This document shows positions 5,490 through 48,377 of a stretch of 64,000 nt of DNA, one piece after another. The position numbers and the translations under genes were made by a program. The notes under the pieces are model-generated. The model worked only from the letters and a program-made list of their open reading frames with translations. It searched no databases and was not told the DNA's origin. How positions within the stretch are numbered: position 1 is the stretch's first letter; each line of letters opens with the position of its first letter. The DNA comes from an uncultured Candidatus Saccharibacteria bacterium (GTDB lineage Bacteria > Patescibacteriota > Minisyncoccia > UBA6257 > 2-01-FULL-56-20), in assembly GCA_964484655.1 (NCBI GenBank), contig CAZAFA010000001.1, positions 31,242 through 95,241 of the forward strand, written 5' to 3'.

Positions 5490-5861
5490 ATGGAGACTCC
5501 CGAGCAGCCGCGCGTCGTCAACTTCAGCGAAGCTGACGTGGCGCGCGTGAAGACGGAGCTCGAGTCGCGGCCGGAGACGCGCGCCGAGGGCGCGCCCGCG
5601 AACCGCGAGGCCGTTCGGCAGGCGCTCGTCGCCGTCCTCCCGCAGCCGGTGCCCGCGACGGCAACCTCGACGCCGTCGCAGGTCGTCGAGACGGCCGGAA
5701 CGCAGCAGCGCGTGGAGGCGCTGGTCCGCCAAGCCGCCGAGCAGGGCATCGACGCGGCGCACGCCCGCGCCGCTGCGGACGAGCCCTACGTGCTCGACGC
5801 GTTCCACGACGCGCTCGCCGGCGCGATGCACGACGAGCTCGCTCGTCGCGGACTGCTCTGA
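5490..5861 (+). CDS. Hypothetical soluble protein translationally coupled to the downstream ATPase
   Basis: 123 aa from M at 5490 (the track ORF starts at 5418). Its stop TGA overlaps the ATG of the next gene (ctgATGc). Ala/Glu-rich with no known domain. Confidence 0.4.
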   Translation: METPEQPRVVNFSEADVARVKTELESRPETRAEGAPANREAVRQALVAVLPQPVPATATSTPSQVVETAGTQQRVEALVRQAAEQGIDAAHARAAADEPYVLDAFHDALAGAMHDELARRGLL

Positions 5862-10086: not shown

Positions 10087-12255
10087 ATGCTCAAGCCTCT
10101 CGCCGACGCCTCCGACCGCGCCCTCTCCGGCATCGCGCTCGTGCGCATCGACGTCAACGCGGCTGACGACTGGCGCCTCGAGGCGGTCGTGCCTACGATT
10201 CGCCATCTCGCGGAGCGCGCGCGGAAGGTGATCGTGATCAGCCACAAGGGACGTCCGTCGCCGGGACAGCGCCTCGGCCCGCTGAGCCTCTGGAGCGACG
10301 CGCAGAAGCTGCAGGAGCATCTGGAGCAGGACGTCTGGTTCGTCTCCGACACGAGCATTCCCGCGGTGCGCAAGGAGCTCGCCACGATTCCCGACGGCAC
10401 CGTGACGGTCCTCGAGAACATCCGCGCCTTCAAGGGCGAATCCTCGGACGCGGAGAGCTTCGCGGCCGCGCTCGCCTCGCTCGGGGACTACTACGTCTCC
10501 GACGCGTTCCCGGTCTTGCATCACCCGGCGGCTTCCGTGACCGGCCTGCCGCGCCTCCTGCCGAGCTACGCCGGCTTCCAGCTCACCGAGGAGCTCGAGC
10601 GGCTCGGCAAGCTCTCCAACCGCGTGCGCCGGCCGTACGTGGTGGTAATCGGCGGCGCGAAGGCGGGGGACAAGCTCGGCGTCCTCGAGGAGGTGATCGG
10701 GCGCGCGGACAAGGTGCTCGTCGGCGGCGCGTGCGCGAACGCGCTGCTCGCGCTCTCGGGCGTCGACGTCGGGAACTCCGTCTACGAGCGCGACCCGAAG
10801 CTGCTCGCCGCGCTCAAGCCGTACGTGGGGCATAAGAAGATCATCCTGCCGACGGACTACGTCAGGAGCGGCGGCCGGATCCTCGACATCGGCCCGAAGA
10901 CGGCGCGCGCCTTCGCGCGCGAGGTGGGCAAGGCGGGGACCGTGCTCTGGACGGGCCCGCTCGGCCTCATCGAGCAGAAGCGCTTCGCGAAGGGCACGCT
11001 CGCCGCGGCCGTCGCGGCGGCGCGCAACCGCAAGGCGTTCACGGTCACCGGCGGCGGCGAGACGGTCACGTTCCTCAAGCAGCACGGCCTCGACCGGAAG
11101 TTCTCCTTCATCTCGACCGGCGGCGGCGCGATGATCGACTTCGTCGCGGGGAAGAAGCTGCCCGGCCTCGAGGCGCTCGCCGGACGCAAGGCGCCCGCCC
11201 CGCGGAAGAAGGCGGCCACGACGAAGGAGCGCGTCGCCCAGGTCATCGCGCCGAAGATGCCGAAGCTCGCGCCGACCTATGACATCTTCTTCCACGACGA
11301 CTTCGACGGCCGCGCCTCGGCCGCGGTCTTCATGGACTTCCTGTCGTCGCGCAAGAGCAAGGTGGGCCGCCTGATCCCGGTGGAGCACGACCTTGCCGAC
11401 GTCTGGCTCAAGCGCGACGCGCTCAATCGCATCGCCGGCAGCAAGCGGATCAACCCGGCCGTAGTCGTGGATTTCCCGTACCACCCGCAGGCCGCCTTCT
11501 GGTATGACCATCATCCGGGCGCCATCCGCCTGCCGGAGTGGGAGGCGCGCTTCCAGCCGTCCGTGTTCCGCCGGCTCGACACGGACTACGCGTCGGCCTG
11601 CCATCTCGTCCTGGACATGCTCGTCGAGGGATTCGGGTACGCGCCGCCGCGCCGCATCAAGGAGCTCGCGCGCTGGGCGGACATCGTCGACAGCGCCCGC
11701 TGGACCAACCCGTATCAGACCTTCGCGCTTCGGGAGCCTGGCATGCAGGTGAGCTCCTTCATCAGCGACGAGGCTGCCGCCGCCGCGCGCCGCGGCGAGC
11801 GCACGGACGCGCTTCCCTGGCTCATCGAGCTCATGGCCAAGCACGGCGTCGAGCGCGCCTCGCGCGACAAGCGCGTGCAGGCGGCCGTCGCGCGCATCCG
11901 CGAGGAGAGCAAGCAGTCGCTCGCGTTCTACCGCCGCAACCTGGAGGAGCGGGGGATCGTCGCGGTCATCGACACGTCGGGCCTGCCGACGCGCAAGCTG
12001 CGGTACGCGCCGTACTACCTGTCTCCCGCAGCGATCTACGCGCTCGCCCTGTCCGAGCGCAAGGACGGCTCGTACGTCATCCAGGCAGGCGTCAGCCCCT
12101 GGAAACGGGAGCGCAACGCCTTCGACATCGGCGGCGTGCTCCGGCAGTTCGGGGGCGGCGGCCATCCCTTCGCGGGCGCCGTGCGGCTCGCCACCCGAGC
12201 CGAAGCCGACCGCGTCGTCGACTACCTCGTCTCGCTGTTCAATGGCACCAGCTAG
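10087..12255 (+). CDS. pgk: Fusion protein: phosphoglycerate kinase (N-terminal) plus DHH/DHHA1 phosphoesterase (NrnA-like, C-terminal)
   Basis: Residues 1-~372 form a complete PGK, ending with the PGK C-terminus FISTGGGAMIDFVAGKKLPGLEAL. A basic linker follows. The C-terminal ~350 aa carry DHH motifs FHDDFDG, VVVDFPYHP, WYDHHPG and the DHHA1 GGGGHPFAG. There is no stop between the two parts. Confidence 0.75.
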   Translation: MLKPLADASDRALSGIALVRIDVNAADDWRLEAVVPTIRHLAERARKVIVISHKGRPSPGQRLGPLSLWSDAQKLQEHLEQDVWFVSDTSIPAVRKELATIPDGTVTVLENIRAFKGESSDAESFAAALASLGDYYVSDAFPVLHHPAASVTGLPRLLPSYAGFQLTEELERLGKLSNRVRRPYVVVIGGAKAGDKLGVLEEVIGRADKVLVGGACANALLALSGVDVGNSVYERDPKLLAALKPYVGHKKIILPTDYVRSGGRILDIGPKTARAFAREVGKAGTVLWTGPLGLIEQKRFAKGTLAAAVAAARNRKAFTVTGGGETVTFLKQHGLDRKFSFISTGGGAMIDFVAGKKLPGLEALAGRKAPAPRKKAATTKERVAQVIAPKMPKLAPTYDIFFHDDFDGRASAAVFMDFLSSRKSKVGRLIPVEHDLADVWLKRDALNRIAGSKRINPAVVVDFPYHPQAAFWYDHHPGAIRLPEWEARFQPSVFRRLDTDYASACHLVLDMLVEGFGYAPPRRIKELARWADIVDSARWTNPYQTFALREPGMQVSSFISDEAAAAARRGERTDALPWLIELMAKHGVERASRDKRVQAAVARIREESKQSLAFYRRNLEERGIVAVIDTSGLPTRKLRYAPYYLSPAAIYALALSERKDGSYVIQAGVSPWKRERNAFDIGGVLRQFGGGGHPFAGAVRLATRAEADRVVDYLVSLFNGTS

Positions 12256-15059: not shown

Positions 15060-16856
15060 ATGATGCAGCCGATGCGCGACATCGTCCCATACGCCGACGC
15101 CGATCCCACGCCGGACCGTCCCCCGCGGCCGCCGGTCCCGCGCGAGCCGCGGCGGAAGCTCCGTGCCGCCCTCCTCGCGTCCTTCCTCGGCCTTGCGCTC
15201 CTGGTCGCGAGCGTCGGGTCCATCGTCGTGGCGTTCGGCCGGATGGCCGACGCGACGCCGCTCTCGTTCCCGCTCGCATCCGTCCTCGAGACTATCTCGA
15301 GCGCGTACCGCCGCATAGCCGGATTTGCCGGCAGCAGCGTGGCGCTCGTACGGCTCGGCAACGAGGCCCTCGCCCTCGCCCCGGACCTCCTCAAGGGGAA
15401 GCGCGGCGACGAATTGATTGCACTCCTCGGCCGCGCGCAGGACGAGCTCGCCGCGCTCGGCAGCACGGGCCTCGTGCCCGAGCTCGGCGCCAAGGGGAGC
15501 GACCTGGCGACGGCGGCGGGCGCGTTCCGCGAATGGCTCGACAGCGCGGAGGAGCGCCGCGTCGCCGTGGTCTTCGGCAACTCCGCCGAGATGCGCGCCG
15601 GCGGCGGCTTCATCGGCAGCTACGCCGAGGTCACGCTGCGCCGCGGCGCCGTCGCGGGGATCGTCGTGCGCGACATCAACGACGCCGACAGCGGGAGCGG
15701 CGACCGCACGATCCCGCCACCGCAGCTCGAGCCCGTCGCCGCGCGCTGGCGAGCCGCCGACGCCAACTGGTTCCTCTCCGGGCCCGCGTCCGGCGCCGCG
15801 TTCCTGAACCTGCTCAACCGCTCGCCGCTCTATAAGGACAAGCCGGTCGACGCGGCTTTCTTCGTCGCGCCGCGCGTGGTCTCCGACTTCCTCGCGCTCA
15901 CCGGCCCGATCGAGGCGGGCGGCGTGACCGTCGACAAGGACAACTTCCTCCGCGTCATCCAGAACGAGGTCCAGGAGGGGCAGGCGTCCGGCGCGGAATC
16001 GCCCAAGGCCGTGCTCACCGCGCTCGTGCCGGCCTTCACCGACGCCCTCCTCTCGCAGGCGCGGAGCCAGCCGCTCGCCGTCGTCGAGACGCTCCGGAAC
16101 GGCGTCGCGCGGCGCGACATCGTCGCGTACGCAGACGACGCCGCCGTGGAGCGCGCGCTGGACCTGCTCGGCATGAGCGGCAGCCTCTACCCGACCGGGG
16201 ACCGCTTCGTCGGCGGCTACGTCGCCGTCGCCCCGAGCACGATCGGCGGGGACAAGACGGACGCCGTCACGGGCCAGGAGGTCCGCGTCAGGCAGCAGCT
16301 CTTCCCGAAGGGTCTCGTCGAGACCACCGTCGAGGTGGAGCGCGCCCATCGCGGCGCCGACGACGACCCGTGGTGGTACCGCGAGGAGCACCGCAGCTAC
16401 GTGAAGGTCTACGCGCCGCAGGATTCCACGCCGCTCGCCGCGACCGGCATCTGGCTGCGCGACCGCGCGCTCGCGACGTACGACGGCACGTTCTCCGCCT
16501 ACGAGCCGCTCGCGACGGTCCTGTCCACGCGGGCGTACTTCCCGGACGTGCCCGGCGTCGAGTCGTACCGCGAGGCGGACAAGACGGTGTTCGGCTTCTG
16601 GCAGCGCACGGCGCGCGGCGCCTCGACCGTGGCGCGCCTCTCCTACGCGACCCAGCTGCCGCGCGAGCTCCGGGACGGCGACGCGTATGCCTTCGTCCTC
16701 GAGCGCCAGCCGGCGAGCACCTCCTCGTACCGGGTCGACGTGTACGCGCCGCCCGGATTCCGCTTCGCCGAGAGCGGGACCGCGCGGTACCAGTGGTCCA
16801 GCGAAGATCCCGCGGGCCGCACCGTGACGGCGCTCACCCTGCAGGCCGCCCCGTGA
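15060..16856 (+). CDS. Hypothetical membrane-anchored extracellular protein (DUF4012-like)
   Basis: 598 aa with a Pro-rich N-terminus and one TM. The GGFIGSYAEV motif is remembered from DUF4012 family proteins. Low certainty on the family. Confidence 0.4.
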   Translation: MMQPMRDIVPYADADPTPDRPPRPPVPREPRRKLRAALLASFLGLALLVASVGSIVVAFGRMADATPLSFPLASVLETISSAYRRIAGFAGSSVALVRLGNEALALAPDLLKGKRGDELIALLGRAQDELAALGSTGLVPELGAKGSDLATAAGAFREWLDSAEERRVAVVFGNSAEMRAGGGFIGSYAEVTLRRGAVAGIVVRDINDADSGSGDRTIPPPQLEPVAARWRAADANWFLSGPASGAAFLNLLNRSPLYKDKPVDAAFFVAPRVVSDFLALTGPIEAGGVTVDKDNFLRVIQNEVQEGQASGAESPKAVLTALVPAFTDALLSQARSQPLAVVETLRNGVARRDIVAYADDAAVERALDLLGMSGSLYPTGDRFVGGYVAVAPSTIGGDKTDAVTGQEVRVRQQLFPKGLVETTVEVERAHRGADDDPWWYREEHRSYVKVYAPQDSTPLAATGIWLRDRALATYDGTFSAYEPLATVLSTRAYFPDVPGVESYREADKTVFGFWQRTARGASTVARLSYATQLPRELRDGDAYAFVLERQPASTSSYRVDVYAPPGFRFAESGTARYQWSSEDPAGRTVTALTLQAAP

Positions 16857-18607
16857 TGGACATCCGCAACTTCGTCATCATCGCGCACATCGACCACGGC
16901 AAGTCCACGCTCGCGGACCGCATGCTCGAGGTCACGGGCACCGTCGAGATGCGCAAGATGCGCGCGCAGTACCTCGACCAGCTCGAGCTCGAGCGCGAGC
17001 GCGGCATCACCATCAAGATGGCGCCGGTGCGCATGCAGTGGAAGGGCGTGACGCTCAACCTCATCGACACGCCGGGGCACAGCGACTTCAGCTACGAGGT
17101 CAGCCGCGCCCTGCAGGCGGTCGAGGGCGCCGTGCTCCTGGTCGACGCGACCAAGGGCATCCAGGCGCAGACGCTCTCCAACCTGCGCGCCGCCCGCGCG
17201 GCGGGTCTCACGATCATCGGCGCCGTGAACAAGGTGGACATGAACCCGCCCCACCTCGACGACACGATCCTCGCGCTCGCCCAGCTGCTGGACCAGAGCC
17301 CGGACGACATCCACCGCATCTCGGGCAAGGCCGGCACCGGCGTGCCGGAGCTCCTCGACATGGTCGTCGCGAAGGTCCCTCCCGCGGAGGCGGGGAGCGG
17401 CAAGCTTGCCGCCCTGATCTTCGACTCGCGCTACGACGACCATCGCGGCATCCTCGCCTTCGTGCGCGTCGAGGCCGGGCAGATCAGGCCCGGGGACGAG
17501 GTCGTGCTCGCCGCGACGGGCGCCCGGGTCAAGGTGAAGGAGGTCGGCTCGTTCGCGCCGCAGCTGACGCCGGGCAAGGCGCTCGAGACCGGGCAGATCG
17601 GCTACGTCGCCACCGGCCTCAAGGACACGGGCATCGTGCGCATCGGCGACACGGTCGTGCAGCAGGGCGGGGCTGACGCGGCGCTTCCGGGCTACCGCCA
17701 GCCGGAGCCGGTCGTCTTCATCGCGTTCTATCCGGACGAGAGCACGTCCTTCGACGACCTCGAGCGCGCGCTCGCCAAGCTCCGCCTCAACGACGCGGCG
17801 CTCGTGGTTTCCCCGGACGCCAACGAGGCGCTCGGACGCGGCCTGAAGGTGGGATTCCTCGGCCAGCTCCATTTCGAGATCACGGCCGGCCGCCTCCAGC
17901 GCGAGTTCGGCCTCTCGGTGGTCACGAGCTTCCCGTCCATCGCGTACCGCGTGCGGACCGGCGGCGTCGAGAAGATCGTCACCCAGGGCGACGAGTGGCC
18001 GAGCGAGGTGGACCAGGCCTGGCAGCCCATGATCAAGCTCGAGATCATCGCCCCGCCCGACTACGTCAACGCGGTCTCGCAGGTCGGCGCCCGGTACGAC
18101 ATGGAGACGCTCGCCTTCGAGAACATCGGCGAGTCCGTCCTCATCGAGGCGCGCATGCCGCTCTCCGAGCTCATCCGCGACTTCGACGACCAGCTGAAGT
18201 CCGCCACGGCCGGCTACGCGTCCTTCACGTACGAGCCGGACGGCGAGGAGGTCGCGAAGCTCGTGAAGCTGGAGATCCTGCTCGCGGGCGAGGTGGAGCC
18301 GGCGCTCACGCGCATCGTGCCGCGCAAGGACGCGGAGCGCGAAGGCCGCGGCATGTGCGAGAAGCTCAAGGAGCTCCTGCCGAAGCTGCAGTTCGCGCAG
18401 GCGATCCAGGCGCGCGTGGACAGCAAGATCATCGCGCGCGAGACGATCGCCGCCATGAAGAAGGACGTGACCGGGTACCTGTACGGCGGCGACCGCAGCC
18501 GCAAGATGAAGCTCTGGAAGAAGCAGCAGGAAGGCAAGAAGCGCCTCAAGGCGAGCGGCACGGTGTCGGTCCCGATCGAGGTATTCCGCGAGATCCTCAA
18601 GAAGTAG
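16856..18607 (+). CDS. lepA: Elongation factor 4 (LepA)
   Basis: NFVIIAHIDHGKSTLADR G1, DTPGH G3 and NKVD G4 motifs. The LepA-specific C-terminal domain is present. The track ORF has a spurious N-terminal extension from 16370. Confidence 0.85.
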   Translation: MDIRNFVIIAHIDHGKSTLADRMLEVTGTVEMRKMRAQYLDQLELERERGITIKMAPVRMQWKGVTLNLIDTPGHSDFSYEVSRALQAVEGAVLLVDATKGIQAQTLSNLRAARAAGLTIIGAVNKVDMNPPHLDDTILALAQLLDQSPDDIHRISGKAGTGVPELLDMVVAKVPPAEAGSGKLAALIFDSRYDDHRGILAFVRVEAGQIRPGDEVVLAATGARVKVKEVGSFAPQLTPGKALETGQIGYVATGLKDTGIVRIGDTVVQQGGADAALPGYRQPEPVVFIAFYPDESTSFDDLERALAKLRLNDAALVVSPDANEALGRGLKVGFLGQLHFEITAGRLQREFGLSVVTSFPSIAYRVRTGGVEKIVTQGDEWPSEVDQAWQPMIKLEIIAPPDYVNAVSQVGARYDMETLAFENIGESVLIEARMPLSELIRDFDDQLKSATAGYASFTYEPDGEEVAKLVKLEILLAGEVEPALTRIVPRKDAEREGRGMCEKLKELLPKLQFAQAIQARVDSKIIARETIAAMKKDVTGYLYGGDRSRKMKLWKKQQEGKKRLKASGTVSVPIEVFREILKK

Positions 18608-21000: not shown

Positions 21001-22449
21001 CTAGGCCTCCTCGTATCTGATTCCCAGCGCGAGCACGCGCGCGTCGTCGAAGCGCGTTCCCTGGAGCTGGAAGGAGACCGGGAGGCTCTCCGGGCCGTAC
21101 GCGGCATCGTTCCACGGCGTCACCGGCACCGAGATCGCGGGCAGCCCGGCGAGGTTCGCCGGGATCGTGAAGACGTCCGAGAGGTACATCGCGACCGGAT
21201 CGTCGGCCTTCTCGCCTGCCTTGAAGGCGGTCGTCGGGGTCGTGGGGGAGAGGATCGCGTCCACCTTCCCGAACGCCTCGTCGAAGTCGCGGGAGACGAG
21301 CGTGCGCGCGGCCTGCGCCTTCCCGTAGTAGGCGTCGTAGTAGCCCGAGGAGAGGACGAACGTGCCGAGGATGAGGCGCCGCTTCACCTCGGCGCCGAAG
21401 CCGGTGCCGCGCGCGTTGAGATAGCGCTCGAGGAGCGTGCCGTCGCTGCCGTGGACGGGCGCATAGCGGAGGCCGTCGTAGCGCGCGAGGTTCGAGCTCG
21501 CCTCGGCCGGCTGTATGACGTAGTAGCAGGCGAGCGCGAGGTCGGTATGCGGCAGCGAGATCTCCACGACCTCATGCCCGAGCGACTCGAAGCGCTTGCG
21601 CGCCTGCTCGAACCCGGCAGCGATCTCAGGCGCGAGGTCGCCGGAGAGGTACTCCTTCGGGATGCCAATGCGCATGCCCTGCGCGGACGACGCGTCGACG
21701 TGCGCGAGGCCTTCGGCGAGGTCGCGGTGCGCGGTGGTCGCGTCGAGCGGATCCGGACCGGCGATCGCGGCGAAGACGGTCGCGGCGTCGCGGACGGTCT
21801 TCGCGAACGGGCCGATCTGATCCAGGCTGCTCGCGAGCGCGATCGCGCCGGAGCGCGAGACGGCTCCATAGGTCGGCTTGAAGCCGACCGCGCCGCAGAA
21901 GGCGGCGGGCTGGCGGATGCTGCCTCCGGTGTCCGTCCCGAGCGCCGCGAGCGCCTCGCTGTCGGCGACGGCAGCCGCCGAGCCGCCGGAGCTGCCGCCC
22001 GGCACGCGCTCGAGGTCCCACGGGTTGCGCGTGACGCCGAGCGCCGAGTTCTCGGTGGAGGAGCCCATCGCGAACTCGTCCAGGTTCGTCTTCCCGACGA
22101 GCACGGCGCCGGCGTCCTTGAGGCGCGCCACGGCGGTCGCGTCGTAGCTCGCCTCGTAGCTCTCGAGGATCCGGGAGGCGGCGGTAGCCGGCGCTCCCTG
22201 CACGAGCAGGTTGTCCTTGATCGCGACCGGGATGCCGTCCAGGTCGCCCTTGGTCGCGCCCTTCGCGCGGCGCTCGTCCGAAGCGGCCGCGGTCGCGAGC
22301 ATCTCGTCGGTCATCACGTGCAGGTACGCGCCGACCTCCTCCCGCTCCTGGATGCGCGCGAGGGTCGCGCGCGCGAGATCGGTCGCGGTGTACGTCCCCG
22401 CGGCGAGTTCCCGGGCGGCGTCGGCGATGGTGAGCTTGGCGAGGTCCAT
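21001..22449 (-). CDS. gatA: Glu-tRNA(Gln)/Asp-tRNA(Asn) amidotransferase subunit A
   Basis: Amidase signature GGSSGGSAAAVA plus the conserved KDN and Ser-cisSer-Lys regions. The true start MDLAKL is at 22449; the track ORF is artefactually extended to 23097. Confidence 0.85.
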   Translation of the reverse strand: MDLAKLTIADAARELAAGTYTATDLARATLARIQEREEVGAYLHVMTDEMLATAAASDERRAKGATKGDLDGIPVAIKDNLLVQGAPATAASRILESYEASYDATAVARLKDAGAVLVGKTNLDEFAMGSSTENSALGVTRNPWDLERVPGGSSGGSAAAVADSEALAALGTDTGGSIRQPAAFCGAVGFKPTYGAVSRSGAIALASSLDQIGPFAKTVRDAATVFAAIAGPDPLDATTAHRDLAEGLAHVDASSAQGMRIGIPKEYLSGDLAPEIAAGFEQARKRFESLGHEVVEISLPHTDLALACYYVIQPAEASSNLARYDGLRYAPVHGSDGTLLERYLNARGTGFGAEVKRRLILGTFVLSSGYYDAYYGKAQAARTLVSRDFDEAFGKVDAILSPTTPTTAFKAGEKADDPVAMYLSDVFTIPANLAGLPAISVPVTPWNDAAYGPESLPVSFQLQGTRFDDARVLALGIRYEEA

Positions 22450-22451
22450 GG

Positions 22452-22727
22452 TCAGAATACGCGGGGCACCTTGAGGAAGCCGTCCTCGGACTCGGGGAAG
22501 GCGCGCTTCGCGTCCTCGCCGATACGGGCGCTCTCGCCGTCCTCGCGGAAGACGCCGCGCTCCGGAGCGGCATGCGTCGCCGGCGCCTGCTTGGCCGCCT
22601 CGAGCCGGCTCACGTGCCCGAGGATGTTTCCGAGGTCCGCGGCGAGGCGCTCCGTCTCGACGGCTTCGAGGCGGATGCGCGCGAGGCCGGCAAGGCGGGA
22701 TACCTCCTCGGGAGATACGTCGGGCAT
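22452..22727 (-). CDS. gatC: Glu-tRNA(Gln) amidotransferase subunit C
   Basis: 92 aa immediately upstream of gatA. MPDVSPEEVSRLAGLARIRL is a typical GatC N-terminus. Confidence 0.7.
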   Translation of the reverse strand: MPDVSPEEVSRLAGLARIRLEAVETERLAADLGNILGHVSRLEAAKQAPATHAAPERGVFREDGESARIGEDAKRAFPESEDGFLKVPRVF

Positions 22728-22759
22728 GCGGAGAGTGTAGGCCGAATCCGCGGGCGCTG

Positions 22760-23272
22760 CTACCGCTTCGGGTGCACGCAGATGATGCGCTGCGTCCAGT
22801 GCTCGCGCAGCGTCGCGAGCGGCACCTCGTAGCGGACCCCCTCGCGCGTGTCGCGGAACGGGTCGTAGACGGTGGCGGAGCCGCCCTCGAGGCCGCAGAC
22901 GACGATGAGGTGGCTGCTCTCGCTCGGCGAGAACGCTGGCGCCACGGACGCGACCACCGGGCCGCGCGCGACCGCGTCCTCGAGGTGCTCCCACGCATCC
23001 TCAGGGAGATCGCCGCTCCAGTCCTCGGGGTGAGCGCGCACGCCGAAGCTTCGCGCGACCGCGGCAAGCTCGCGATGGAGCCAGCCGTTCCCCTCATGAT
23101 ACGCGCCGGTCTCGAGGCCGCGCGCGAGCACCTCCTCGACGGACGGGGGGTTCTCGATGCCCGAGGCGCCGAGGACCATGGCGAGCGCAGCGGCGCCGCA
23201 GGAGCGGCGACGGTACGCAGGATCGCTGACGTCCAGGAGCTGCGAGTAGGCGGGGAGGGTGCGGTCGGTCAT
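22760..23272 (-). CDS. Papain-like cysteine peptidase, C39-like (Peptidase_C39_2/BtrH-like)
   Basis: SCGAAALAMVL catalytic-Cys motif and a downstream SHLIVVCGLEGG His region. Confidence 0.5.
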   Translation of the reverse strand: MTDRTLPAYSQLLDVSDPAYRRRSCGAAALAMVLGASGIENPPSVEEVLARGLETGAYHEGNGWLHRELAAVARSFGVRAHPEDWSGDLPEDAWEHLEDAVARGPVVASVAPAFSPSESSHLIVVCGLEGGSATVYDPFRDTREGVRYEVPLATLREHWTQRIICVHPKR

Positions 23273-34518: not shown

Positions 34519-34552
34519 AAAGGACCCCGCTTGGTGCGGGGTCCTTTCGTTA
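34519..34552 (+). terminator. Rho-independent terminator
   Basis: aaaggaccccgc-ttgg-tgcggggtcctttcgtt. Confidence 0.5.
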
Positions 34553-34911
34553 GGCGGCGTCCTGGTAAGCGGGATTCTGTCGCGCGAGCGCGGGCAGCAA
34601 TCTGTCTGGGATCATCGTCGCCGATGACCTCAAGCGGCACTCCGGCTTGCGCCGGCACGGCCTTGCACCCGGTAAGGATTTAGCCGTTTCACCCCGGCGG
34701 TCTCCCGCCGGACTGTCCCCGAGGGGACCCGGAGGCATTTCTGCTCCGGCGTCTCTGTTCGCACCTCTCGCGTTGCCGCGGCGGGCCGTTAGCCCGTACC
34801 TTTTTGACTCGATGAAGAGTGGGTGTCCCGACTTTCCTCTGGAGCGGAACTCCAGCTGCTGCCTCGGACGCCGCGCTGGCAGTCTGTCAGCTTTGGCTCG
34901 CGATGCAAGGC

Positions 34912-35406
34912 TCAGGCCTTCTCCTCCAGGTCGTTGCGGAGCGCGTGATTGCTCAGGCCGGTCACGCGCAGCAGGTAGATCGTCAGCGACATGAGGAGCG
35001 CCGCGAGCGTCGCGAACTGCCAGAGGCCGAGGCCCGCGAGGATGCCGATGCCGGCGGTGCTCCAGATGAGCGCCGCGGTGGTGAGGCCCTGCACATGGTG
35101 GTTCTCCTTCATGATGATGCCGCCGCCGATGAAGCCGATGCCGACGACGATGTTGGCGATGAGGTTGAAGGCCGTCGACTCAGCCGCGAAGTTCGCAGCG
35201 GCCGCGGCGGAGTCGGTCATGAGGTAGGGGATGGAGATCGCGACGAGCGTGAACAGACACGCGCCGCCGGCCACGAGCATGGACGTCTTGATGCCCGCGT
35301 CCTTGCGGATGACCTCGCGCTCGAAGCCCATGACGACGCCGAGCGCGAGCGCCACCATGAGGCGCACCAGCATTTGCGAGACCGTGAGCAGTTCCATAGA
35401 CTGCAT
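34912..35406 (-). CDS. mgtC: MgtC/SapB family membrane protein
   Basis: VALALGVVMGFEREVIRKDAGIKT and GLTTAALIWSTAGIGILAGLG are MgtC-family signatures. The rest of the 683-aa track ORF (to 36963) is antisense to aspS and rejected. Confidence 0.6.
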   Translation of the reverse strand: MQSMELLTVSQMLVRLMVALALGVVMGFEREVIRKDAGIKTSMLVAGGACLFTLVAISIPYLMTDSAAAAANFAAESTAFNLIANIVVGIGFIGGGIIMKENHHVQGLTTAALIWSTAGIGILAGLGLWQFATLAALLMSLTIYLLRVTGLSNHALRNDLEEKA

Positions 35407-35418
35407 TGTACCAAAGGC

Positions 35419-36807
35419 ATGCGCACGCTCATAAAGGCTGCTCCCGGCAAGGTGGGCGAGGACGTGCTCCTCCAGGGCTGGGTGGATACCCGGCGGGACC
35501 ACGGCAAGGTCTCCTTCATCGACCTCCGGGACCGCACGGGCATCGTGCAGGTCGTGCTCACGCCCGACATCGCGGGCGCGGACGAGCTCCGGACGGAGAG
35601 CGCCGTGGAGATCCAGGGGCACGTGAAGGCCCGTCCGGAGAAGCTCGTCAACGACAAGATGCCGGACCGCCTCGGCACGATCGAGATCGAGGCGCGTGCG
35701 GTGCGCGTCCTCGGTCCAGCCGAGGTCATGCCGATCGCCGTCACCACGGACGGCTACGAGATCGGCGAGGAGAGCAGGATGAAGTTCCGCTACCTCGACC
35801 TGCGCCGTCCGCGCCTGCAGCGGAACCTGCGCATGCGCCACGCGGTCATCAAGGGCATCCGCGACTTCCTCAGCGAGCGCGACTTCATCGAGGTGGAGAC
35901 GCCGAATCTCACGAACCCCACGCCGGAGGGCGCGCGCGACTACCTCGTGCCGAGCCGCCTGCAGCCCGGCTCCTTCTACGCGCTGCCGCAGTCCCCGCAA
36001 CAGTTCAAGCAGCTCCTCATGGTCGCCGGGCTCGAGCGCTACTTCCAGATCGCGCGCTGCTTCCGCGACGAGGACACGCGCGGCGACCGCCAGGCCGAGT
36101 TCACGCAGCTCGACCTCGAGATGAGCTTCGTCGACCAGGAGGACGTCATGAACCTCAACGAGGCGCTCCTGATCCATCTCGTCGAGACGCTCTTCCCCGA
36201 GAAGCGCATCCAGGAGACCCCGTTTCCGCGCCTGACCTACGCCGAAGCGATGGACCAGTACGGCTCGGACCGTCCGGACCTGCGCACGGACAAGAGCGAC
36301 CCGGACCTGCTCGCGTTCTGCTGGATCGTGGACTTCCCGATGTTCGAGAAGGACGACGCGGGCGGCTGGACCTTCACGCATAACCCGTTCTCTGCCGCGC
36401 AGCCCGCGTACCAGCAGAACCTCGCCAACGGCGCCGACGTCGGGCAGATCCTCGCCGCGCAGTACGACGTGGTGCTCAACGGCTACGAGATCGGCGGCGG
36501 CAGCGTCCGTAACCACAAGCCGGAGCTCCTCCGTGCCGTCCTGCGCATCATGGGCTACGAGGACGAGCGCATCGACGCCGACTTCGGCCACATGCTCGAG
36601 GCGCTCGGGTACGGCGCGCCGCCGCACGGCGGCATCGCGTGGGGCCTGGACCGCCTCGTCATGCTCCTGCTCGGCGAGCCGAACATCCGCGAGGTCATGG
36701 CGTTCCCGAAGACGGGGGACGGCCGCGACCTCATGGCCGGCGCTCCGGTCCCGGTGCCGAAGGAGCGCCTCGACGACCTCGGCCTCAAGCTCGTGGACAA
36801 GAAGTAG
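35419..36807 (+). CDS. aspS: Aspartyl-tRNA synthetase (probably non-discriminating)
   Basis: Class II aaRS motifs FRDEDTR and GGGSVRNH, an OB-fold N-terminus, and the C-terminal GLDRLVMLL. gatCA is present in the window. Confidence 0.85.
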   Translation: MRTLIKAAPGKVGEDVLLQGWVDTRRDHGKVSFIDLRDRTGIVQVVLTPDIAGADELRTESAVEIQGHVKARPEKLVNDKMPDRLGTIEIEARAVRVLGPAEVMPIAVTTDGYEIGEESRMKFRYLDLRRPRLQRNLRMRHAVIKGIRDFLSERDFIEVETPNLTNPTPEGARDYLVPSRLQPGSFYALPQSPQQFKQLLMVAGLERYFQIARCFRDEDTRGDRQAEFTQLDLEMSFVDQEDVMNLNEALLIHLVETLFPEKRIQETPFPRLTYAEAMDQYGSDRPDLRTDKSDPDLLAFCWIVDFPMFEKDDAGGWTFTHNPFSAAQPAYQQNLANGADVGQILAAQYDVVLNGYEIGGGSVRNHKPELLRAVLRIMGYEDERIDADFGHMLEALGYGAPPHGGIAWGLDRLVMLLLGEPNIREVMAFPKTGDGRDLMAGAPVPVPKERLDDLGLKLVDKK

Positions 36808-37904: not shown

Positions 37905-37907
37905 TAA

Positions 37908-37938
37908 GAAAAGACCCGGGGGAGCCGGGTCTTTTCTT
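37908..37938. terminator. Bidirectional terminator between ndk and release-factor gene
   Basis: aagacccgggggagccgggtctt with a T/A-rich flank on both sides. Confidence 0.5.
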
Positions 37939-37943
37939 ATGTC

Positions 37944-38663
37944 TTATGCCGCCTTCATCGCTTCCGCGATCTTTCCGAAGTCTCCCTCGAGGATCTTCTC
38001 GATGTTGCTCCACTTCTTGCCGATGCGGTGATCGGTGATGCGGTCGTCGGGGAAGTTGTACGTGCGGATCTTCTCGGAGCGGTCGCCGGTGCCGATGGCC
38101 TGGCGTCCCGCGGCGGTCTGCGCCGCGTCTTTCTCGCGCTGGATGTCATAGAGCTTCGAGCGGAGGATGCCCATCGCGAGCTCGCGGTTCGCGGCCTGCG
38201 TGCGCTCGACGCGAGACGAGACGACGATTCCCGTCGGCTTGTGGAGGATGCGGACGGCGGACTCGATCTTGTTCACGTTCTGGCCGCCGGGCCCGCCGGC
38301 GCGCGAGAAGGTCACCTCGAGGTCGCGGTCGTTGATGACCACCTCAGTCGGCGGGACCACGGGGAACGCGGCCACGGTTGCCGTAGAGGTGTGGATGCGG
38401 CCGCTGCGCTCGGTCTTCGGGACGCGCTGGACCCGGTGGACGCCGGACTCGTGCCGGAAGGCGTCCCAGGCGCCCTCGCCAGAGACCTCGGCCACGAGGG
38501 TCTTGTAGCCCCCGAGGTCGTTCTCGGAGGCGTCGAGGACCGTGAATTTCCAGCCCTGGCTCGAAGCGTAGCGCTGGTACATGTTGGCCAGGTTCGCGGC
38601 GAAAAGAGCCGCCTCGTCGCCGCCGGCGCCAGCCCGGATCTCCATGATGAGCTTCTTGCCCAT
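37944..38663 (-). CDS. prfA: Class I peptide chain release factor, RF1-like, lacking N-terminal domain 1
   Basis: About 240 aa. It begins at the equivalent of E. coli RF1 residue ~105 ([16 protein letters not shown]). PKT tripeptide ([13 protein letters not shown]), GGQ motif [10 protein letters not shown]. There is no room upstream for domain 1, as only 77 bp separate it from a divergent gene. Confidence 0.7.
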
Positions 38664-38740
38664 AGTGGGCACATGGTACCGGCGAGGCGGGGGAGCCGGC
38701 AACCTTTGCTTGACGGGCCGTTCATGTATACTTCGGAATC

Positions 38741-39166
38741 ATGAACAAGCGAATCCTCGTCGTAGACGACGATCCGGATTTCCGCGAGATATTCTCCACG
38801 CACCTCCGCATGAAGGGGTATGACGTGGACACGGCGATGAACGCCGACGACGGCCTGGCCAAGGTCCGTACCGACGCTCCCGACCTGGTGCTCATGGACG
38901 TGCAGATGCCGCCCGGCAAGACGGGCATCGAGGCGTTCTTCGAGCTGAAGAACGATCCGGCGACCAAGGACGTGCCGATCATGTTCCTCACGAACCTCGG
39001 CGCGACCGAGGTGGAGGCGCAGCAGATCAACGTGCAGTACGCCAAGGAGCTCGGCGCGATCGGCGTGCTGAAGAAGACCGAGGACCTCAAGAGCCTCAGC
39101 GAGGCCGTTGCCGCGCAGTTCGCGCAGGAGGTCGGGACGAGCACGCCGCCAGCGCCGGTAGCGTAA
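38741..39166 (+). CDS. Single-domain response regulator (CheY-like receiver)
   Basis: ILVVDDDPDF, the LVLMDVQMP phospho-acceptor Asp, and the conserved Lys region. Confidence 0.75.
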   Translation: MNKRILVVDDDPDFREIFSTHLRMKGYDVDTAMNADDGLAKVRTDAPDLVLMDVQMPPGKTGIEAFFELKNDPATKDVPIMFLTNLGATEVEAQQINVQYAKELGAIGVLKKTEDLKSLSEAVAAQFAQEVGTSTPPAPVA

Positions 39167-39200
39167 AAAATCGAGCCCGCGGTTTTCCGCGGGCTCTGCA
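39167..39200 (+). terminator. Rho-independent terminator
   Basis: aaaaatcgagcccgcggttttccgcgggctc. Confidence 0.45.
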
Positions 39201-39203
39201 TTC

Positions 39204-39737
39204 TCACATCTCGAGCAGGTATTCGGCGATGACGCCGCCTTCCTCCAAGTATCTCGCCTTCGCGTCGTCAGGCAGGTCCTTGAACCCGCCGATGGCGCCG
39301 CGGCAGATGCCGCTGCCGCACAGGCAGGGGACCCCTGCCGCGGTGACGTCGTACTCGAGGGTGGCGTAGTCGAACGCCAGTTCTTCCCCGACCGCGATGT
39401 CGCGACGGGCGACGACCGCGATGACCGCGACCGTGCCTTCCCAGCTCGGACGGACGATCACGGTAGGATCGCACGAATGGTTGAGGAAGTGTCCCGGATT
39501 GAAGGTGCCGTTCAGGCGTTCCGGCTCGATGTGCCGGTCCCGGTCGAACGCGAACGAATACTTCGTCGGCGCGTTCACAAGCATACCTTTCACCGGGAAG
39601 ATCATCTCACCCTTGCGGAACGATCGCGTTGCGATCACGCCCGCCTGTCCGCTCACGGACGGGCTCAGCCCGATGGCTATGCCCCAGTAGTCCATGAAAT
39701 ATATTGCGCCGTCGATGACGGGCGTATTGCTGTCCAT
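39204..39737 (-). CDS. SET-domain protein-lysine methyltransferase
   Basis: FLNHSCDPT (NHSCxPN motif), EELAFDY (ELxFDY), and the post-SET Cys cluster CLCGSGICRG. Confidence 0.7.
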   Translation of the reverse strand: MDSNTPVIDGAIYFMDYWGIAIGLSPSVSGQAGVIATRSFRKGEMIFPVKGMLVNAPTKYSFAFDRDRHIEPERLNGTFNPGHFLNHSCDPTVIVRPSWEGTVAVIAVVARRDIAVGEELAFDYATLEYDVTAAGVPCLCGSGICRGAIGGFKDLPDDAKARYLEEGGVIAEYLLEM

Positions 39738-39871: not shown

Positions 39872-40252
39872 CTAGACGCGGGTGACCACGCTGTGGTTCT
39901 CGTCGCCCGCCTTCCAGTACTCCATGCAGAACTTCACCGCGTCCTCGGGGTCGAACTCGCGGCACGAGAAGAGGTTGAGGTACATGGTCTTGGTGATCGT
40001 GAGGGCATGGCACACGACGTTGCTGGTCTCGATGAACTGGATCGCCGAGATGCCGTCGAGGTGGGGGATGCCGGAGTGGTCCTCCCACATCATCGGCTCG
40101 CCGTGGCGCACCATCTTAACGTGGTCGACGAGCTTGACGAGGAATTCGCCCAGCGTTTCCTGCGTGAGGCCGCTGAAGTCGCATCCGCGCATGTCGAGGA
40201 TCAGCTCGAGGCCGTAATTGCCCCGGTATCCGTATTGCTCCTGTTCTGCCAT
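39872..40252 (-). CDS. speH: S-adenosylmethionine decarboxylase proenzyme (SpeH-like, class 1)
   Basis: LELILDMRGCD and ETSNVVCHALTITK...LFSC parallel the ESH...HTWPE...FTCG layout of small bacterial/archaeal AdoMetDC. The start at M(AEQEQ) is uncertain. Confidence 0.5.
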   Translation of the reverse strand: MAEQEQYGYRGNYGLELILDMRGCDFSGLTQETLGEFLVKLVDHVKMVRHGEPMMWEDHSGIPHLDGISAIQFIETSNVVCHALTITKTMYLNLFSCREFDPEDAVKFCMEYWKAGDENHSVVTRV

Positions 40253-40395
40253 TGAAATGAGATGATGATTTGAGAGTTCGGCTCTTGACCGCATTCTAGA
40301 CCTCTGGGGATGTGGGCTCAAGTGTCCCCGCGGGTTTTCCCCAGGGGCTGATTCCCGGTGCGCTACACTATCCCTATCGGGTCCTATCTGTCCCC

Positions 40396-42308: not shown

Positions 42309-43718
42309 ATGGATCCTCAGTCGAAGGCCGCGGAAGAGGCCGCCTCCGTTCCGGGCATGCCCGCGAAGGACAGCGCCCAGGCGCTGGCGCAGGGCCTGTA
42401 CGCCCGCACGGTCGAGATGGGGATCAAGAACAAGATCCTCTCGCTCCTCGAGCAGCTCTACGGCATCAGCATCCAGCAGCAGTCCACGAAGGATCTCGCG
42501 AGCAAGCTGGCGCCTGTCCTCTGTAACGACCTGTCCTGCGAGTTCGTGTCGCTCCAGCGCTATCTCGACGGCGAAGACAAGCGGCTCGAGACGCTCGCGG
42601 TCGCGGGCTCGGAGCGGTACGCCGAGGCGGCGCGCTCGCTCGGCGTCGACCTGTCGGCGGCCGTCGTGCCGCTCGCCTCGACGCAGGCGCTCGTGGAATG
42701 CGTCACCGAGCATCGGTTCGTAGAGCGCGATTCGCTGTCGTCGGTTTGGGGAGACCTGATCCGCGCGTCGGAGCAGGAGCTTGCCGAGAAGGCGCATGCG
42801 CGCTACGTGATGCTCTACCCGCTCGCCGGCGGCGGGCAGGTCATCGGCGTCCTCGCGCTCGTGCTCAACCGCTCGCGCGCGCAGCTGTCCAGCCTCGAGC
42901 GCGTCCTCTTCGACAACGCGGCCAACGTCGTCGGCATCGCGTTCGAGAAGACGCACCTTTACGAGGCGCTCCAGGACGCGAACACGCAGCTCGGGGATGT
43001 CAGCCACTTCAAGAGCCAGCTCCTGAGCCTCGCCTCGCACCAGATCAAGGCGCCGCTCGCGGCCATGAAGGGGTACATCTCGCTCATCCTCGAGGGCGGC
43101 TACGGCGAGGTTCCGGAGAATCTCATGAAGCCGATCACCGCGATGCAGCGTTCCGCGGACGGCCTCGTCGAGCTGGTCACCTCGCTCCTCGATCTCCGCA
43201 AGATCGAGGAGGGGAAGATGGACTACTCGTTCGACCAGGTCGACCTCGCCGCCATGGTCCGCGACGTGGTCGAGGAGCTCGGCATGCTCGCCCGCGAGAA
43301 GCATCTCGACCTCACCCTCGCCGGCGCGCAGAGCCCGGTCTTCGTCCGCGCGGACAAGACCAAGCTCCGCCAGGTCGCCCAGAACCTCGTGGACAACGCG
43401 ATCAAGTACACCCCCAGCGGCTCGGTGAACGTCTCGCTCATCGTCCAGGACCGGTTCGTCACGTGCACGGTCGCAGACACGGGCCTCGGCATGGCCCCGC
43501 TCCTGCTACCGCGCCTCTTCGACGAGTTCACGCGCGACCAGCGCGTGCAGCACACCATCCGCGGCACGGGTCTCGGCCTCTACATCGCGAAGCGCATCAT
43601 GGAGGCGCACGGCGGCGGCATCTACGCGGACAGCGCCGGCGAGGGCCTCGGCTCGCGCTTCTGGTTCACGCTGCCGATCGACCAGGACCTGCCGGTCCCG
43701 GTGCCGCCGGCGGCGTAG
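42309..43718 (+). CDS. Cytoplasmic GAF-domain sensor histidine kinase
   Basis: No TM. A central GAF-like region, the HisKA H-box LASHQIKAPL, and HATPase_c N/G1/G2 boxes (NLVDNAIKYT, DTGLGM, GTGLGL). Confidence 0.75.
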   Translation: MDPQSKAAEEAASVPGMPAKDSAQALAQGLYARTVEMGIKNKILSLLEQLYGISIQQQSTKDLASKLAPVLCNDLSCEFVSLQRYLDGEDKRLETLAVAGSERYAEAARSLGVDLSAAVVPLASTQALVECVTEHRFVERDSLSSVWGDLIRASEQELAEKAHARYVMLYPLAGGGQVIGVLALVLNRSRAQLSSLERVLFDNAANVVGIAFEKTHLYEALQDANTQLGDVSHFKSQLLSLASHQIKAPLAAMKGYISLILEGGYGEVPENLMKPITAMQRSADGLVELVTSLLDLRKIEEGKMDYSFDQVDLAAMVRDVVEELGMLAREKHLDLTLAGAQSPVFVRADKTKLRQVAQNLVDNAIKYTPSGSVNVSLIVQDRFVTCTVADTGLGMAPLLLPRLFDEFTRDQRVQHTIRGTGLGLYIAKRIMEAHGGGIYADSAGEGLGSRFWFTLPIDQDLPVPVPPAA

Positions 43719-45086: not shown

Positions 45087-45338
45087 TTACGCCTCCTCCT
45101 TCTTGGCGCGTACCTTCTTGGCCTTCTTCTCAACCGGCGCCGCCGCCTGGCGGGAGCGGAAGCGCTCGACGCGCCCGGCGGTGTCGATGAGCTTCTGCTC
45201 GCCGGTGAAGAACGGATGGCACTTCGAGCAGATCTCGATGTCGTAGGATTCGCGGGTTCCGCCGACGGTGAACTTGGTGCCGCAGCCGCAGGTAGCGGTC
45301 GCGGACGCGTGATAGACGGGGTGCAGGTCTGCCTTCAT
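45087..45338 (-). CDS. rpmE: 50S ribosomal protein L31 (Zn-ribbon type)
   Basis: MKADLHPVYH...CGCGTKF...CSKCHPFFTGEQK..DTAGRVERF is the L31 signature with C-x2-C pairs. Confidence 0.85.
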   Translation of the reverse strand: MKADLHPVYHASATATCGCGTKFTVGGTRESYDIEICSKCHPFFTGEQKLIDTAGRVERFRSRQAAAPVEKKAKKVRAKKEEA

Positions 45339-45714: not shown

Positions 45715-47311
<1,597 letters not shown>

Positions 47312-47511
47312 AGCCCTGTAACGGGGACAGGCTAGAGAGTAGGTCGGTCACGGTAGAGCCTCCGGGCACCGTCCGCGGGGGACCAATAGGCCCTTCGGAA
47401 TGGCTATCGTGGATCGCTACAGTCGTAGCACCTATTGGGGCAACTACTAAGCTTTTCTGTCATTACTGCCGCCGGTACCGCATACTATACTTGTGGTACT
47501 ATCTCTACCCC

Positions 47512-47925
47512 ATGGTCGAAGCTCCTAATCTCGCCCTCATCGTCGAGGACCAGAAATTCCTCTCTGCGATCCTCAAGGCCCGCCTCGAGCGGGAGGGCGT
47601 GCAGGTCGCTCAGGCCTTCGACGGTGAGGAAGCCATCCAGTTCCTCACCCAGACGAAGCCGGGCGTCGTGATCCTCGACCTTGTGATGCCGAAGACCTCG
47701 GGATTCGAGGTCCTGGAGGCAATCGCCCTCAACCCGATGCTGAAGTCGCTCCCGGTCCTGGTTCTCAGCAACCTGGCCCAGGACGAGGACATCGCGAAGG
47801 TGAAGCGCCTGGGCGCGAAGGAATACTTCGTGAAGGTGCAGAACCCGGTAGAGACGCTCGTGACGCGCATCAAGGCGTACCTCCCGCAGGCCACGGTACC
47901 CATACCCACCCCACCGAACCCATGA
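47512..47925 (+). CDS. Single-domain response regulator (CheY-like)
   Basis: ALIVEDQ, the VVILDLVMP phospho-acceptor Asp, and the conserved Lys. The start was chosen at MVEAPN; the track ORF starts at 47491. Confidence 0.7.
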   Translation: MVEAPNLALIVEDQKFLSAILKARLEREGVQVAQAFDGEEAIQFLTQTKPGVVILDLVMPKTSGFEVLEAIALNPMLKSLPVLVLSNLAQDEDIAKVKRLGAKEYFVKVQNPVETLVTRIKAYLPQATVPIPTPPNP

Positions 47926-48289: not shown

Positions 48290-48371
48290 GCGCAGGTGGT
48301 GAAACTGGTAGACACGCCATCTTGAGGGGGTGGTCCCGAAAGGGGTGGAGGTTCAAGTCCTCTCCTGCGCA
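48290..48371 (+). tRNA. tRNA-Leu (anticodon GAG), type II with long variable arm
   Basis: gcgcagg-tg-gtgaaactggtagacac-gccat-cttGAGgg-ggtgg-tcccgaaagggg-tggag-gttcaagt-cctct-cctgcgc-a. No encoded CCA. Confidence 0.8.
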
Positions 48372-48377
48372 CATCCC

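Follow-up and report, generated by a model that had tools for sequence, protein, structure and literature searches.

A class I release factor without domain 1 is a lineage-wide trait of Parcubacteria/Paceibacteria

A release factor gene that encodes domains 2 to 4 only

The DNA analyzed here, referred to throughout as the window, is a 64,000-nucleotide stretch of contig CAZAFA010000001.1 (assembly GCA_964484655.1), which is assigned to an uncultured Candidatus Saccharibacteria bacterium. On its minus strand lies a gene for a class I release factor of the RF1 type that is only 239 amino acids (aa) long, its open reading frame (ORF) starting with ATG at 38661-38663 and ending with TAA at 37944-37946. 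Its neighbor on the upstream side is a divergent gene for a CheY-like response regulator. The gene, its motifs, and its immediate flanks are as follows:

37944..38663, minus strand: predicted prfA orthologue, a 239-aa RF1 with domains 2, 3, and 4 only (ORF and translation)
38610..38630, minus strand: GAGGDEA, residues 12-18, tip of the first domain 2 helix (motif position)
38421..38435, minus strand: RVQRV carrying Q79 (motif position)
38412..38420, minus strand: PKT, the RF1 PxT tripeptide anticodon, residues 82-84 (motif position)
38382..38393, minus strand: HTST, residues 91-94, aligned to the same residues of T. thermophilus RF1
38280..38288, minus strand: GGQ catalytic motif, residues 126-128 (G126, G127, and Q128 unchanged across 37 homologues)
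38025..38060, minus strand: conserved segment after the domain 3 helix (switch-loop region), residues 202-213 (alignment)
38664..38740, no strand: divergent intergenic region of 77 bp, the gap between the RF1 ATG and the regulator ATG at 38741
37905..37940, no strand: G+C-rich hairpin flanked by A- and T-runs, AAAAGACCCGGGGGAGCCGGGTCTTTTCTT (terminator-like match on the minus strand)

Pfam annotation of the protein consists of the second half of PF03462 (PCRF; model positions 99-194 of 194, 1.4e-44), followed by a complete match to PF00472 (the RF-1/GGQ domain; 7.6e-37). The NCBIfam RF1 models NF001859 (350 bits) and TIGR00019 (335 bits) align from position 103 of 347 and position 112 of 361, respectively, and continue through to the end. 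RF1 is also by far the best of the four release factor profiles compared, with 350 bits against 220 for RF2, 84 for PrfH, and 48 for ArfB; for RF2 (prfB), the score lies below the cut-off of 370, and the tripeptide position carries PKT, not SPF. A comparison with PDB chains gave the same order (RF1 225-257 bits, RF2 134-156, PrfH 45-63), and the aligned portions were residues 107-342 of the 354 in T. thermophilus RF1 and residues 123-357 of S. mutans RF1. What is missing are the ~100-105 N-terminal residues, which make up all of domain 1. A preliminary description of this DNA, made from the letters alone, had already read the gene as encoding domains 2-4 with an intact GGQ, and the half PCRF domain, the complete RF-1 domain, and the RF1 profile match from position 103 bear this out.

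The elements required for decoding and catalysis are retained in this short RF1. Across 37 aligned homologues, G12, G14, G15, E17, and A18 of the GAGGDEA helix tip, the element that reads U1 of the stop codon in solved RF1 complexes, are unchanged. The same holds for P82 and T84 of the tripeptide, the middle residue of which is K, E, D, V, S, A, I, or T among relatives; the PKT that had at first been singled out as anomalous is one variant of a variable position. HTST and Q79 together form the RF1 element for stop codon positions 2 and 3, and H91, T92, S93, and Q79 are likewise invariant in this alignment. In the AlphaFold2 model of the protein (mean predicted local distance difference test score, pLDDT, 82.7), a beta-strand (residues 4-11) comes first and leads into the long domain 2 helix. 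The model resembles the free compact RF1 structures 1RQ0, 1ZBT, and 6ORL, with template modeling (TM) scores of 0.84-0.86. Its TM score against the open, ribosome-bound RF1 is 0.6, as expected because domain 3 sits in a different position there.

Absence of domain 1 from the locus and its surroundings

The protein starts 7 residues, not 13 as initially counted, before the EIRAG block, at the first strand of domain 2. A protein identical to it over all 239 aa is present at NCBI. An alternative TTG start at 38702 is possible in the window and is not conserved, and in a 98%-identical relative (L086) an in-frame TAG lies five codons upstream of the ATG. The 77-bp gap to the regulator must carry the promoters and 5' untranslated regions of both genes and leaves no room for domain 1; a simple scan of 38664..38740 for the sigma-70 consensus gave no match. 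Both the ~77-bp spacing and the lack of upstream space in the preliminary description thus stand, the latter also in view of the stop codons or the rpmE gene found directly upstream in relatives and of the negative search for domain 1 described below. At the other end of the gene, the hairpin sits between ndk (end 37904) and the convergent RF1 gene (end 37944). It is probably a bidirectional terminator, in which case the RF1 gene would be monocistronic.

For the search, a hidden Markov model (HMM) of domain 1 was built from 31 full-length and intermediate RF1 N-termini. In the fetched DNA, it matches all ORFs of full or intermediate RF1s (1e-11 to 1e-49), and it gave no match in the 64-kb window or within ±10 kb of any short-RF1 locus. 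The window search included an antisense ORF (38722-39207) that runs across the regulator gene; its product is neither helical nor charged in the manner of domain 1, and it is a shadow frame of high G+C. When 5.8 billion proteins were searched by profile with domain 1 queries from Patescibacteria, a search that was insensitive in that it did not recover its own source proteins, no stand-alone domain 1 protein emerged either; all five matches were fragments of ordinary RF1 genes on tiny contigs.

Distribution of short RF1 proteins and graded N-termini

The short form is not confined to the window. More than 200 independent homologues from Parcubacteria/Paceibacteria are 235-256 aa long. The best 120 matches among the 5.8 billion proteins, drawn from NCBI, JGI, ENA, and Logan assemblies and, as far as they carry names, labeled Parcubacteria, Paceibacterota, Liptonbacteria, or 'Patescibacteria group', measure 237-256 aa with a single exception of 290 aa, and no full-length RF1 is among these 120. 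At NCBI, the short proteins are named 'PCRF domain-containing protein' only. A genome scan with one genome per GTDB species returned 80 loci, including 56 short loci of the Patescibacteria type. In these 56, the in-frame open stretch 5' of the conserved core spans mostly 0-35 codons (up to 131 at single loci), and no more than 45 codons separate the core from the first ATG upstream of it. The loci from Bacteroidia, Elusimicrobia, and Omnitrophota have the usual N-terminal extension of ~105 aa. The absence of domain 1, which had been noted as a peculiarity of one genome, is therefore a lineage-wide trait of Parcubacteria/Paceibacteria and not a single-genome defect.

A second short cluster, which includes Portnoybacteria, comprises proteins of 234-251 aa that are ~55% identical to the window protein. 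Closest to them, with 64-68% identity, stand full-length RF1s from Patescibacteria (369 aa in Doudnabacteria, 344-368 aa in others). The two short clusters are placed apart in a rough neighbor-joining tree, which is not robust and suggests more than one loss of domain 1. N-terminal regions of intermediate length occur as well. Among Parcubacteria, they measure ~74-81 aa (Kaiserbacteria type), 54 aa, or 30 aa, and a 287-aa JGI protein (P0365) retains only the first ~45 residues of domain 1. P0365 and the two loci with N-termini of 30 and 54 aa (L048 and L066) look like snapshots of a stepwise loss of domain 1 within Patescibacteria.

Some taxonomic labels in this set deserve comment. A metagenome-assembled genome (MAG) labeled 'Nanoarchaeota archaeon' contains a contig (JAUYPG010000027.1, locus L018) with a Parcubacteria-type short bacterial RF1. 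A contig labeled 'uncultured Bifidobacteriaceae' (CAYSBE010000118.1, locus L056) carries a full-length RF1 that stands beside a Bacteroidia RF1 (L058) in the neighbor-joining tree. Both labels are likely binning or labeling errors. Many Third Party Annotation (TPA) MAGs labeled 'uncultured Candidatus Saccharibacteria' also cluster with Parcubacteria RF1s.

Gene order and orthology

The short RF1 gene comes just after the end of rpmE, which encodes ribosomal protein L31, in the complete genome AP024682.1 (561,860 bp) as well as in many other relatives. The same rpmE-RF1 order is common to the short forms, the forms with N-termini of ~75 aa, and the full-length RF1 genes of Elusimicrobia and Omnitrophota. 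The distance from the rpmE start to the release factor core is 203-345 nt in short forms, ~470-680 nt in forms with shortened N-termini, and 545-870 nt in the full-length Elusimicrobia and Omnitrophota genes. A single slot next to rpmE that holds full, shortened, or domain 1-less genes points to an in-place 5' deletion of prfA and speaks against a paralogue. This synteny identifies the short RF1 gene as orthologous to canonical prfA. Ancestrally, the block seems to have consisted of regulator (minus), 16S rRNA (minus), rpmE (plus), and prfA (plus); this block recurs in many Parcubacteria loci.

The window departs from this order, and the genes concerned are the following:

38741..39166, plus strand: single-domain (CheY-like) response regulator, 141 aa, with D9-D11, D53, and T84 (PF00072, 1.5e-21)
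42309..43718, plus strand: HisKA/HATPase_c sensor kinase (domain matches)
45087..45338, minus strand: rpmE, ribosomal protein L31 (tblastn and ORF)
45715..47292, plus strand: 16S rRNA gene, with no 23S or 5S gene adjoining
48290..48372: tRNA-Leu, near the 16S rRNA gene

Here, rpmE is parted from the RF1 gene by ~6.4 kb, a rearrangement that is also present in the closest relatives (L005/L085 and L086). The movement of this DNA to a position between rpmE and RF1 is the reason that the response regulator now adjoins the RF1 gene. In relatives, the regulator recurs near the short RF1 gene, either directly divergent or with the 16S rRNA gene and rpmE in between. We found no evidence for a functional link between regulator and RF1 beyond this conserved neighborhood. 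The earlier view of an orphan regulator holds as far as its CheY-like nature and divergent orientation are concerned; its orphan status is doubtful, since the HisKA/HATPase_c kinase shares its neighborhood in the window as well as in the relatives L085 and L086 and is a possible partner.

Searches with tblastn detected no second release factor homologue in the 64-kb window and none within ±10 kb of the RF1 gene in 84 loci. Neither RtcB nor any other repair gene lies near the short RF1 gene in any annotated relative, and no L11 gene was present in the fetched DNA.

Selection and stop codon use

A comparison of the RF1 genes of the window and L086 yielded a dS of 0.54 and a dN of 0.010 (dN/dS 0.019). 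The short RF1 gene is under strong purifying selection.

UAG is read by RF1 alone. TAG ends 27 of the 55 window ORFs picked by third-position G+C, and 25 of 49 under a second filter, and in the same ORFs TGA accounts for 20-23 stops and TAA for 4-5. In related short-RF1 loci, TAG is the stop codon of 21-29% of ORFs. This heavy use of a codon that depends on RF1 implies that an efficient RF1 is needed in these organisms, and the frequent TGA stops imply an RF2 gene elsewhere in the genome. TGA is usually the dominant stop codon at high G+C. In the window, TAG is used most often and TGA next, with TAA rare, despite a genome G+C of 63-73%; this bias may stem from a balance between RF1 and RF2 activities that is particular to the lineage.

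RF2 and fused forms in metagenomes

A metagenome scan with the RF2-specific pattern SPFDxxGRRHTSF yielded 120 RF2 loci, none of them assignable to Paceibacteria. No genuine domain 1-less RF2 was found among these 120: all uncut RF2s except two have a full N-terminal region. Both exceptions were rejected, as L188 (OCPY01007445.1) is frameshifted, with domain 1 in another frame, and L141 is a chimera with 0.49x coverage. Such artefacts show that single short release factor genes need comparative support. At ~15 of the RF2 loci (L113, L131, L145, L148, L162, and others), we observed a large protein homologous to a ~900-aa ORF of the Parcubacteria locus L041, which we take to be SecA. There is no RF2 gene nearby in L041, and the linkage appears to have been lost there.

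A further set of proteins, among them P0121 and P0127, has the RF1 core at the N-terminus followed by extra C-terminal sequence, which in some of them gives weak PrmC_N or ABC_tran matches. By their appearance, these are truncated genes or read-through fusions, and we did not retain them as relatives.

Other features of the window

Two genes on the minus strand adjoin the regulator-RF1 pair and are kept in L086: one encodes a SET-domain protein (lysine methyltransferase fold; 39204-39737) and the other an S-adenosylmethionine decarboxylase (39872-40321). On one side of the 16S rRNA gene lies rpmE; on the other are a second response regulator (47491-47925) and rplS (L19; 47922-48233).

Farther from the locus, an ORF of 722 aa (10087-12255, plus strand) contains a phosphoglycerate kinase domain in residues 24-356 only, and the 366 aa that follow in frame give just a weak match to DHHA1 (E = 0.002); a fusion or an overlooked gene boundary may be the cause. 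For AspRS (34819-36807), LepA (16370-18607), and a GatA-like amidase (21001-23097), the longest ORFs have N-terminal extensions of 160-240 aa devoid of domain matches, and the one for AspRS overlaps the gene for RNase P RNA (34550-34874). The extensions are probably not real and represent over-extended starts in G+C-rich DNA. A 786-aa protein (5861-8221, plus strand) matches HerA/DUF87, VirD4/TraG-type coupling proteins, and TraG-D_C, and is possibly what is left of a conjugative or type IV secretion element in a genome that has undergone reduction.

Interpretation and alternative explanations

We consider it likely, with a probability of roughly three in four, that the short protein is the canonical, general-purpose RF1 of Parcubacteria/Paceibacteria, i.e., the prfA orthologue with its domain 1 coding region deleted in place. 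This agrees with one of the options in the preliminary description, a genuinely minimal RF1, which the RF1 profile, the decoding elements, and the rpmE-prfA slot of the relatives favor. We propose that the short RF1 is fully competent as a release factor at UAA and UAG and that it turns over independently of RF3. It would enter the ribosomal A site at UAA and UAG and decode the stop codon through elements of domains 2 and 4, namely the GAGGDEA helix tip, PxT, Q79, and H91-T94. Opening from the compact to the extended form would then place GGQ in the peptidyl-transferase center, where the peptidyl-tRNA would be hydrolyzed. We infer the decoding and hydrolysis steps from the strict conservation of the motifs. 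Without domain 1, contacts of the kind made in E. coli with the N-terminal domain of L11, the 30S beak, and domain 3 of RF3 would be lost. Because the interface for RF3 is missing, exit from the ribosome would be RF3-independent, either by spontaneous dissociation or by subunit rotation driven by RRF and EF-G. The short protein would also be the sole RF1 of its genome, and RF3 is predicted to be absent from these genomes.

Two points weigh against this interpretation. First, the short RF1 falls below the curated equivalog cut-offs of both RF1 models (350 versus 400 bits and 335 versus 423 bits), which is explained by the first 102-111 model positions, a quarter of the model, being unmatched. 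Second, RF1 is inactive on E. coli ribosomes that lack L11 (W. Tate, reviewer comments, PMC1586002), so that the loss of the domain that contacts L11 might be harmful. A compensatory change in charge was considered and set aside. The domain 2-4 core of the short forms has a net charge of +6.6 ± 3.6 (n = 229) compared with +0.6 ± 4.1 in diverse full-length RF1s (n = 76). The nearest full-length Patescibacteria RF1s already range from 0 to +11, and the difference is thus at least partly a trait of the lineage.

The best-surviving alternative, which we nevertheless regard as improbable, is that the short protein is a specialized RF1-like paralogue that acts beside a normal full-length RF1, for instance in the rescue of stalled or damaged ribosomes in the manner of PrfH or ArfB. 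PrfH also lacks domain 1, and the finding that no other release factor is present covers the 64 kb of the window. Yet the protein scores far below the cut-offs of PrfH (84 versus 167 bits) and ArfB (48 versus 100 bits), strictly retains the PxT and the other decoding residues of RF1, and is vertically conserved in the canonical rpmE-prfA slot. The annotated relatives have no rtcB or repair neighbors, no second release factor was found within ±10 kb in the 84 loci, and full-length RF1 is absent from the best 120 database relatives. The rescue factor that the preliminary description had offered as another option is disfavored by the same profile scores, motifs, and gene position, and a second copy of a release factor is unlikely given the synteny and the graded N-terminal lengths at the same locus.

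It is considerably less probable still that the gene has been split, with domain 1 encoded elsewhere as a polypeptide of its own that meets the short RF1 on the ribosome. In favor of this, the domain forms an autonomous bundle of helices and shows flexibility in solution (PMC1586002), and the local search extended over ±10 kb around the gene only. Against a split gene stand the negative HMM results in the window and at the short-RF1 loci, and the search of 5.8 billion proteins, which, though insensitive, recovered fragments of ordinary RF1 only. Furthermore, the partly eroded N-termini of 45, 30, and 54 aa indicate decay rather than relocation.

An artefact or pseudogene, in which a frameshift, a mis-assembly, or a wrong start call masks an N-terminal extension, can be set aside almost entirely: although the genome is rich in G+C, with many long spurious ORFs and over-extended starts, and truly frameshifted release factor genes such as the RF2 of L188 do exist in metagenomes, the same architecture recurs in hundreds of independent NCBI, JGI, ENA, and Logan assemblies, the start adjoins rpmE or a divergent gene and has in-frame stops just upstream, the dN/dS is 0.02, and no nearby frame has coding potential for domain 1.

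Significance

The preferred reading, that the short protein is the canonical RF1, can be extended to a broader statement, to which we give slightly less than even odds: in much of Parcubacteria/Paceibacteria, the domain 1-less protein would be the sole RF1 and RF3 would be absent. If this is true, a very large radiation terminates translation at UAG and UAA without contact between the release factor and the L11 stalk and without GTPase-driven recycling, which would confirm, in nature and across whole genomes, the status of domain 1 as an accessory module. An asymmetry might also be expected, with RF2 retaining domain 1, as predicted by E. coli truncation data in which RF1 is tolerant and RF2 is not. 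The significance of the finding hinges on these genome-wide facts, a sole RF1 and no RF3.

The view that domain 1 serves in docking to the L11 stalk and in coupling to RF3 has so far rested mainly on E. coli mutants and structures. A large and diverse lineage in which RF1 without this domain is fixed and UAG stops are frequent offers a natural system in which to study the purpose of domain 1, the departure of RF1 from the ribosome in the absence of RF3, and the means by which the loss is offset, and a cultured member of the class, Minisyncoccus archaeiphilus (AP038758), makes experiments possible. There is also a practical aspect: TIGR00019 (prfA) is among the GTDB bacterial marker proteins (PMC12281837). 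The short RF1 lies under the curated NCBIfam cut-off of this model. Should marker pipelines use a similar threshold, these genomes would tend to be counted as lacking prfA, with effects on completeness estimates and marker phylogenies.

Essentially every RF1 and RF2 described so far contains domain 1. In the literature, it is part of the canonical architecture of class I release factors, and the forms listed without it are PrfH, ArfB, ICT1, C12orf65, and MRPS35, with no mention of an RF1 from the candidate phyla radiation (CPR) among them (PMC6514570). Our full-text literature search turned up neither a description of a domain 1-less RF1 from CPR, Patescibacteria, or Parcubacteria nor any survey of prfC across them. 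The form is unexpected for a universal translation factor, yet it is mechanistically anticipated by the truncation work in E. coli.

Comparison with known systems

The closest known system is canonical RF1 itself (TIGR00019/NF001859; T. thermophilus 4V63, E. coli 2B3T), which shares domains 2-4 with the short RF1 at 52-60% identity. Both have the same PxT, GGQ, helix-tip, and switch-region motifs, the same predicted compact fold, and, in the relatives, the same rpmE-prfA order. The difference lies in the N-terminal helical domain 1, the surface for L11, the 30S beak, and RF3, which is gone in the window protein. The contacts of this domain with the L11 N-terminal domain, the 30S beak, and domain 3 of RF3 in E. 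coli have been described (Pallesen et al, 2013; PMC3677378).

With respect to domain architecture, the window protein equals the engineered E. coli RF1 from which the N-terminal domain was removed. This truncated RF1 keeps its codon specificity and in vitro release activity and works in vivo, and it fails to stimulate nucleotide exchange on RF3 (Mora et al, 2003, as summarized in PMC1586002). RF3 itself is non-essential, and small genomes were not found to contain it (PMC1586002). The E. coli protein is a laboratory construct in a host that has RF3, whereas the window form is natural, fixed across a large lineage, and under purifying selection.

PrfH (RFH), which is paired with RtcB2, also combines the absence of domain 1 with a codon recognition-type domain and a GGQ motif. 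In PrfH, the residues of the decoding region are conserved but unlike those of RF1 and RF2, SxY replaces the tripeptide, and the gene always lies in an operon downstream of an rtcB-like gene (PMC1586002); its distribution is sporadic, by horizontal transfer (PMC6514570). The window protein differs from it in its score below the PrfH cut-off, its RF1 motifs, the lack of an rtcB neighbor, and its vertical conservation. ArfB, ICT1, and C12orf65 share the GGQ (RF-1) domain with the window protein. They lack a codon recognition domain and carry a basic C-terminal tail, whereas the window protein has a PCRF domain, and the ArfB model matches it at residues 120-153 only.

Finally, the RF1s with a compact domain 1, such as T. 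maritima RF1 (1RQ0) and the Kaiserbacteria-type proteins of ~310-330 aa, have the same core. The match to this core starts at residue 86 in 1RQ0 and at residues ~75-81 in the proteins of L044, L052, L060, and L070. Their helical N-terminal domain is recognized by the domain 1 HMM (42-55 bits), in contrast to the window protein, in which no such domain is seen. Thus, the length of domain 1 is evolutionarily plastic, and a compact domain 1 is not unique to Parcubacteria.

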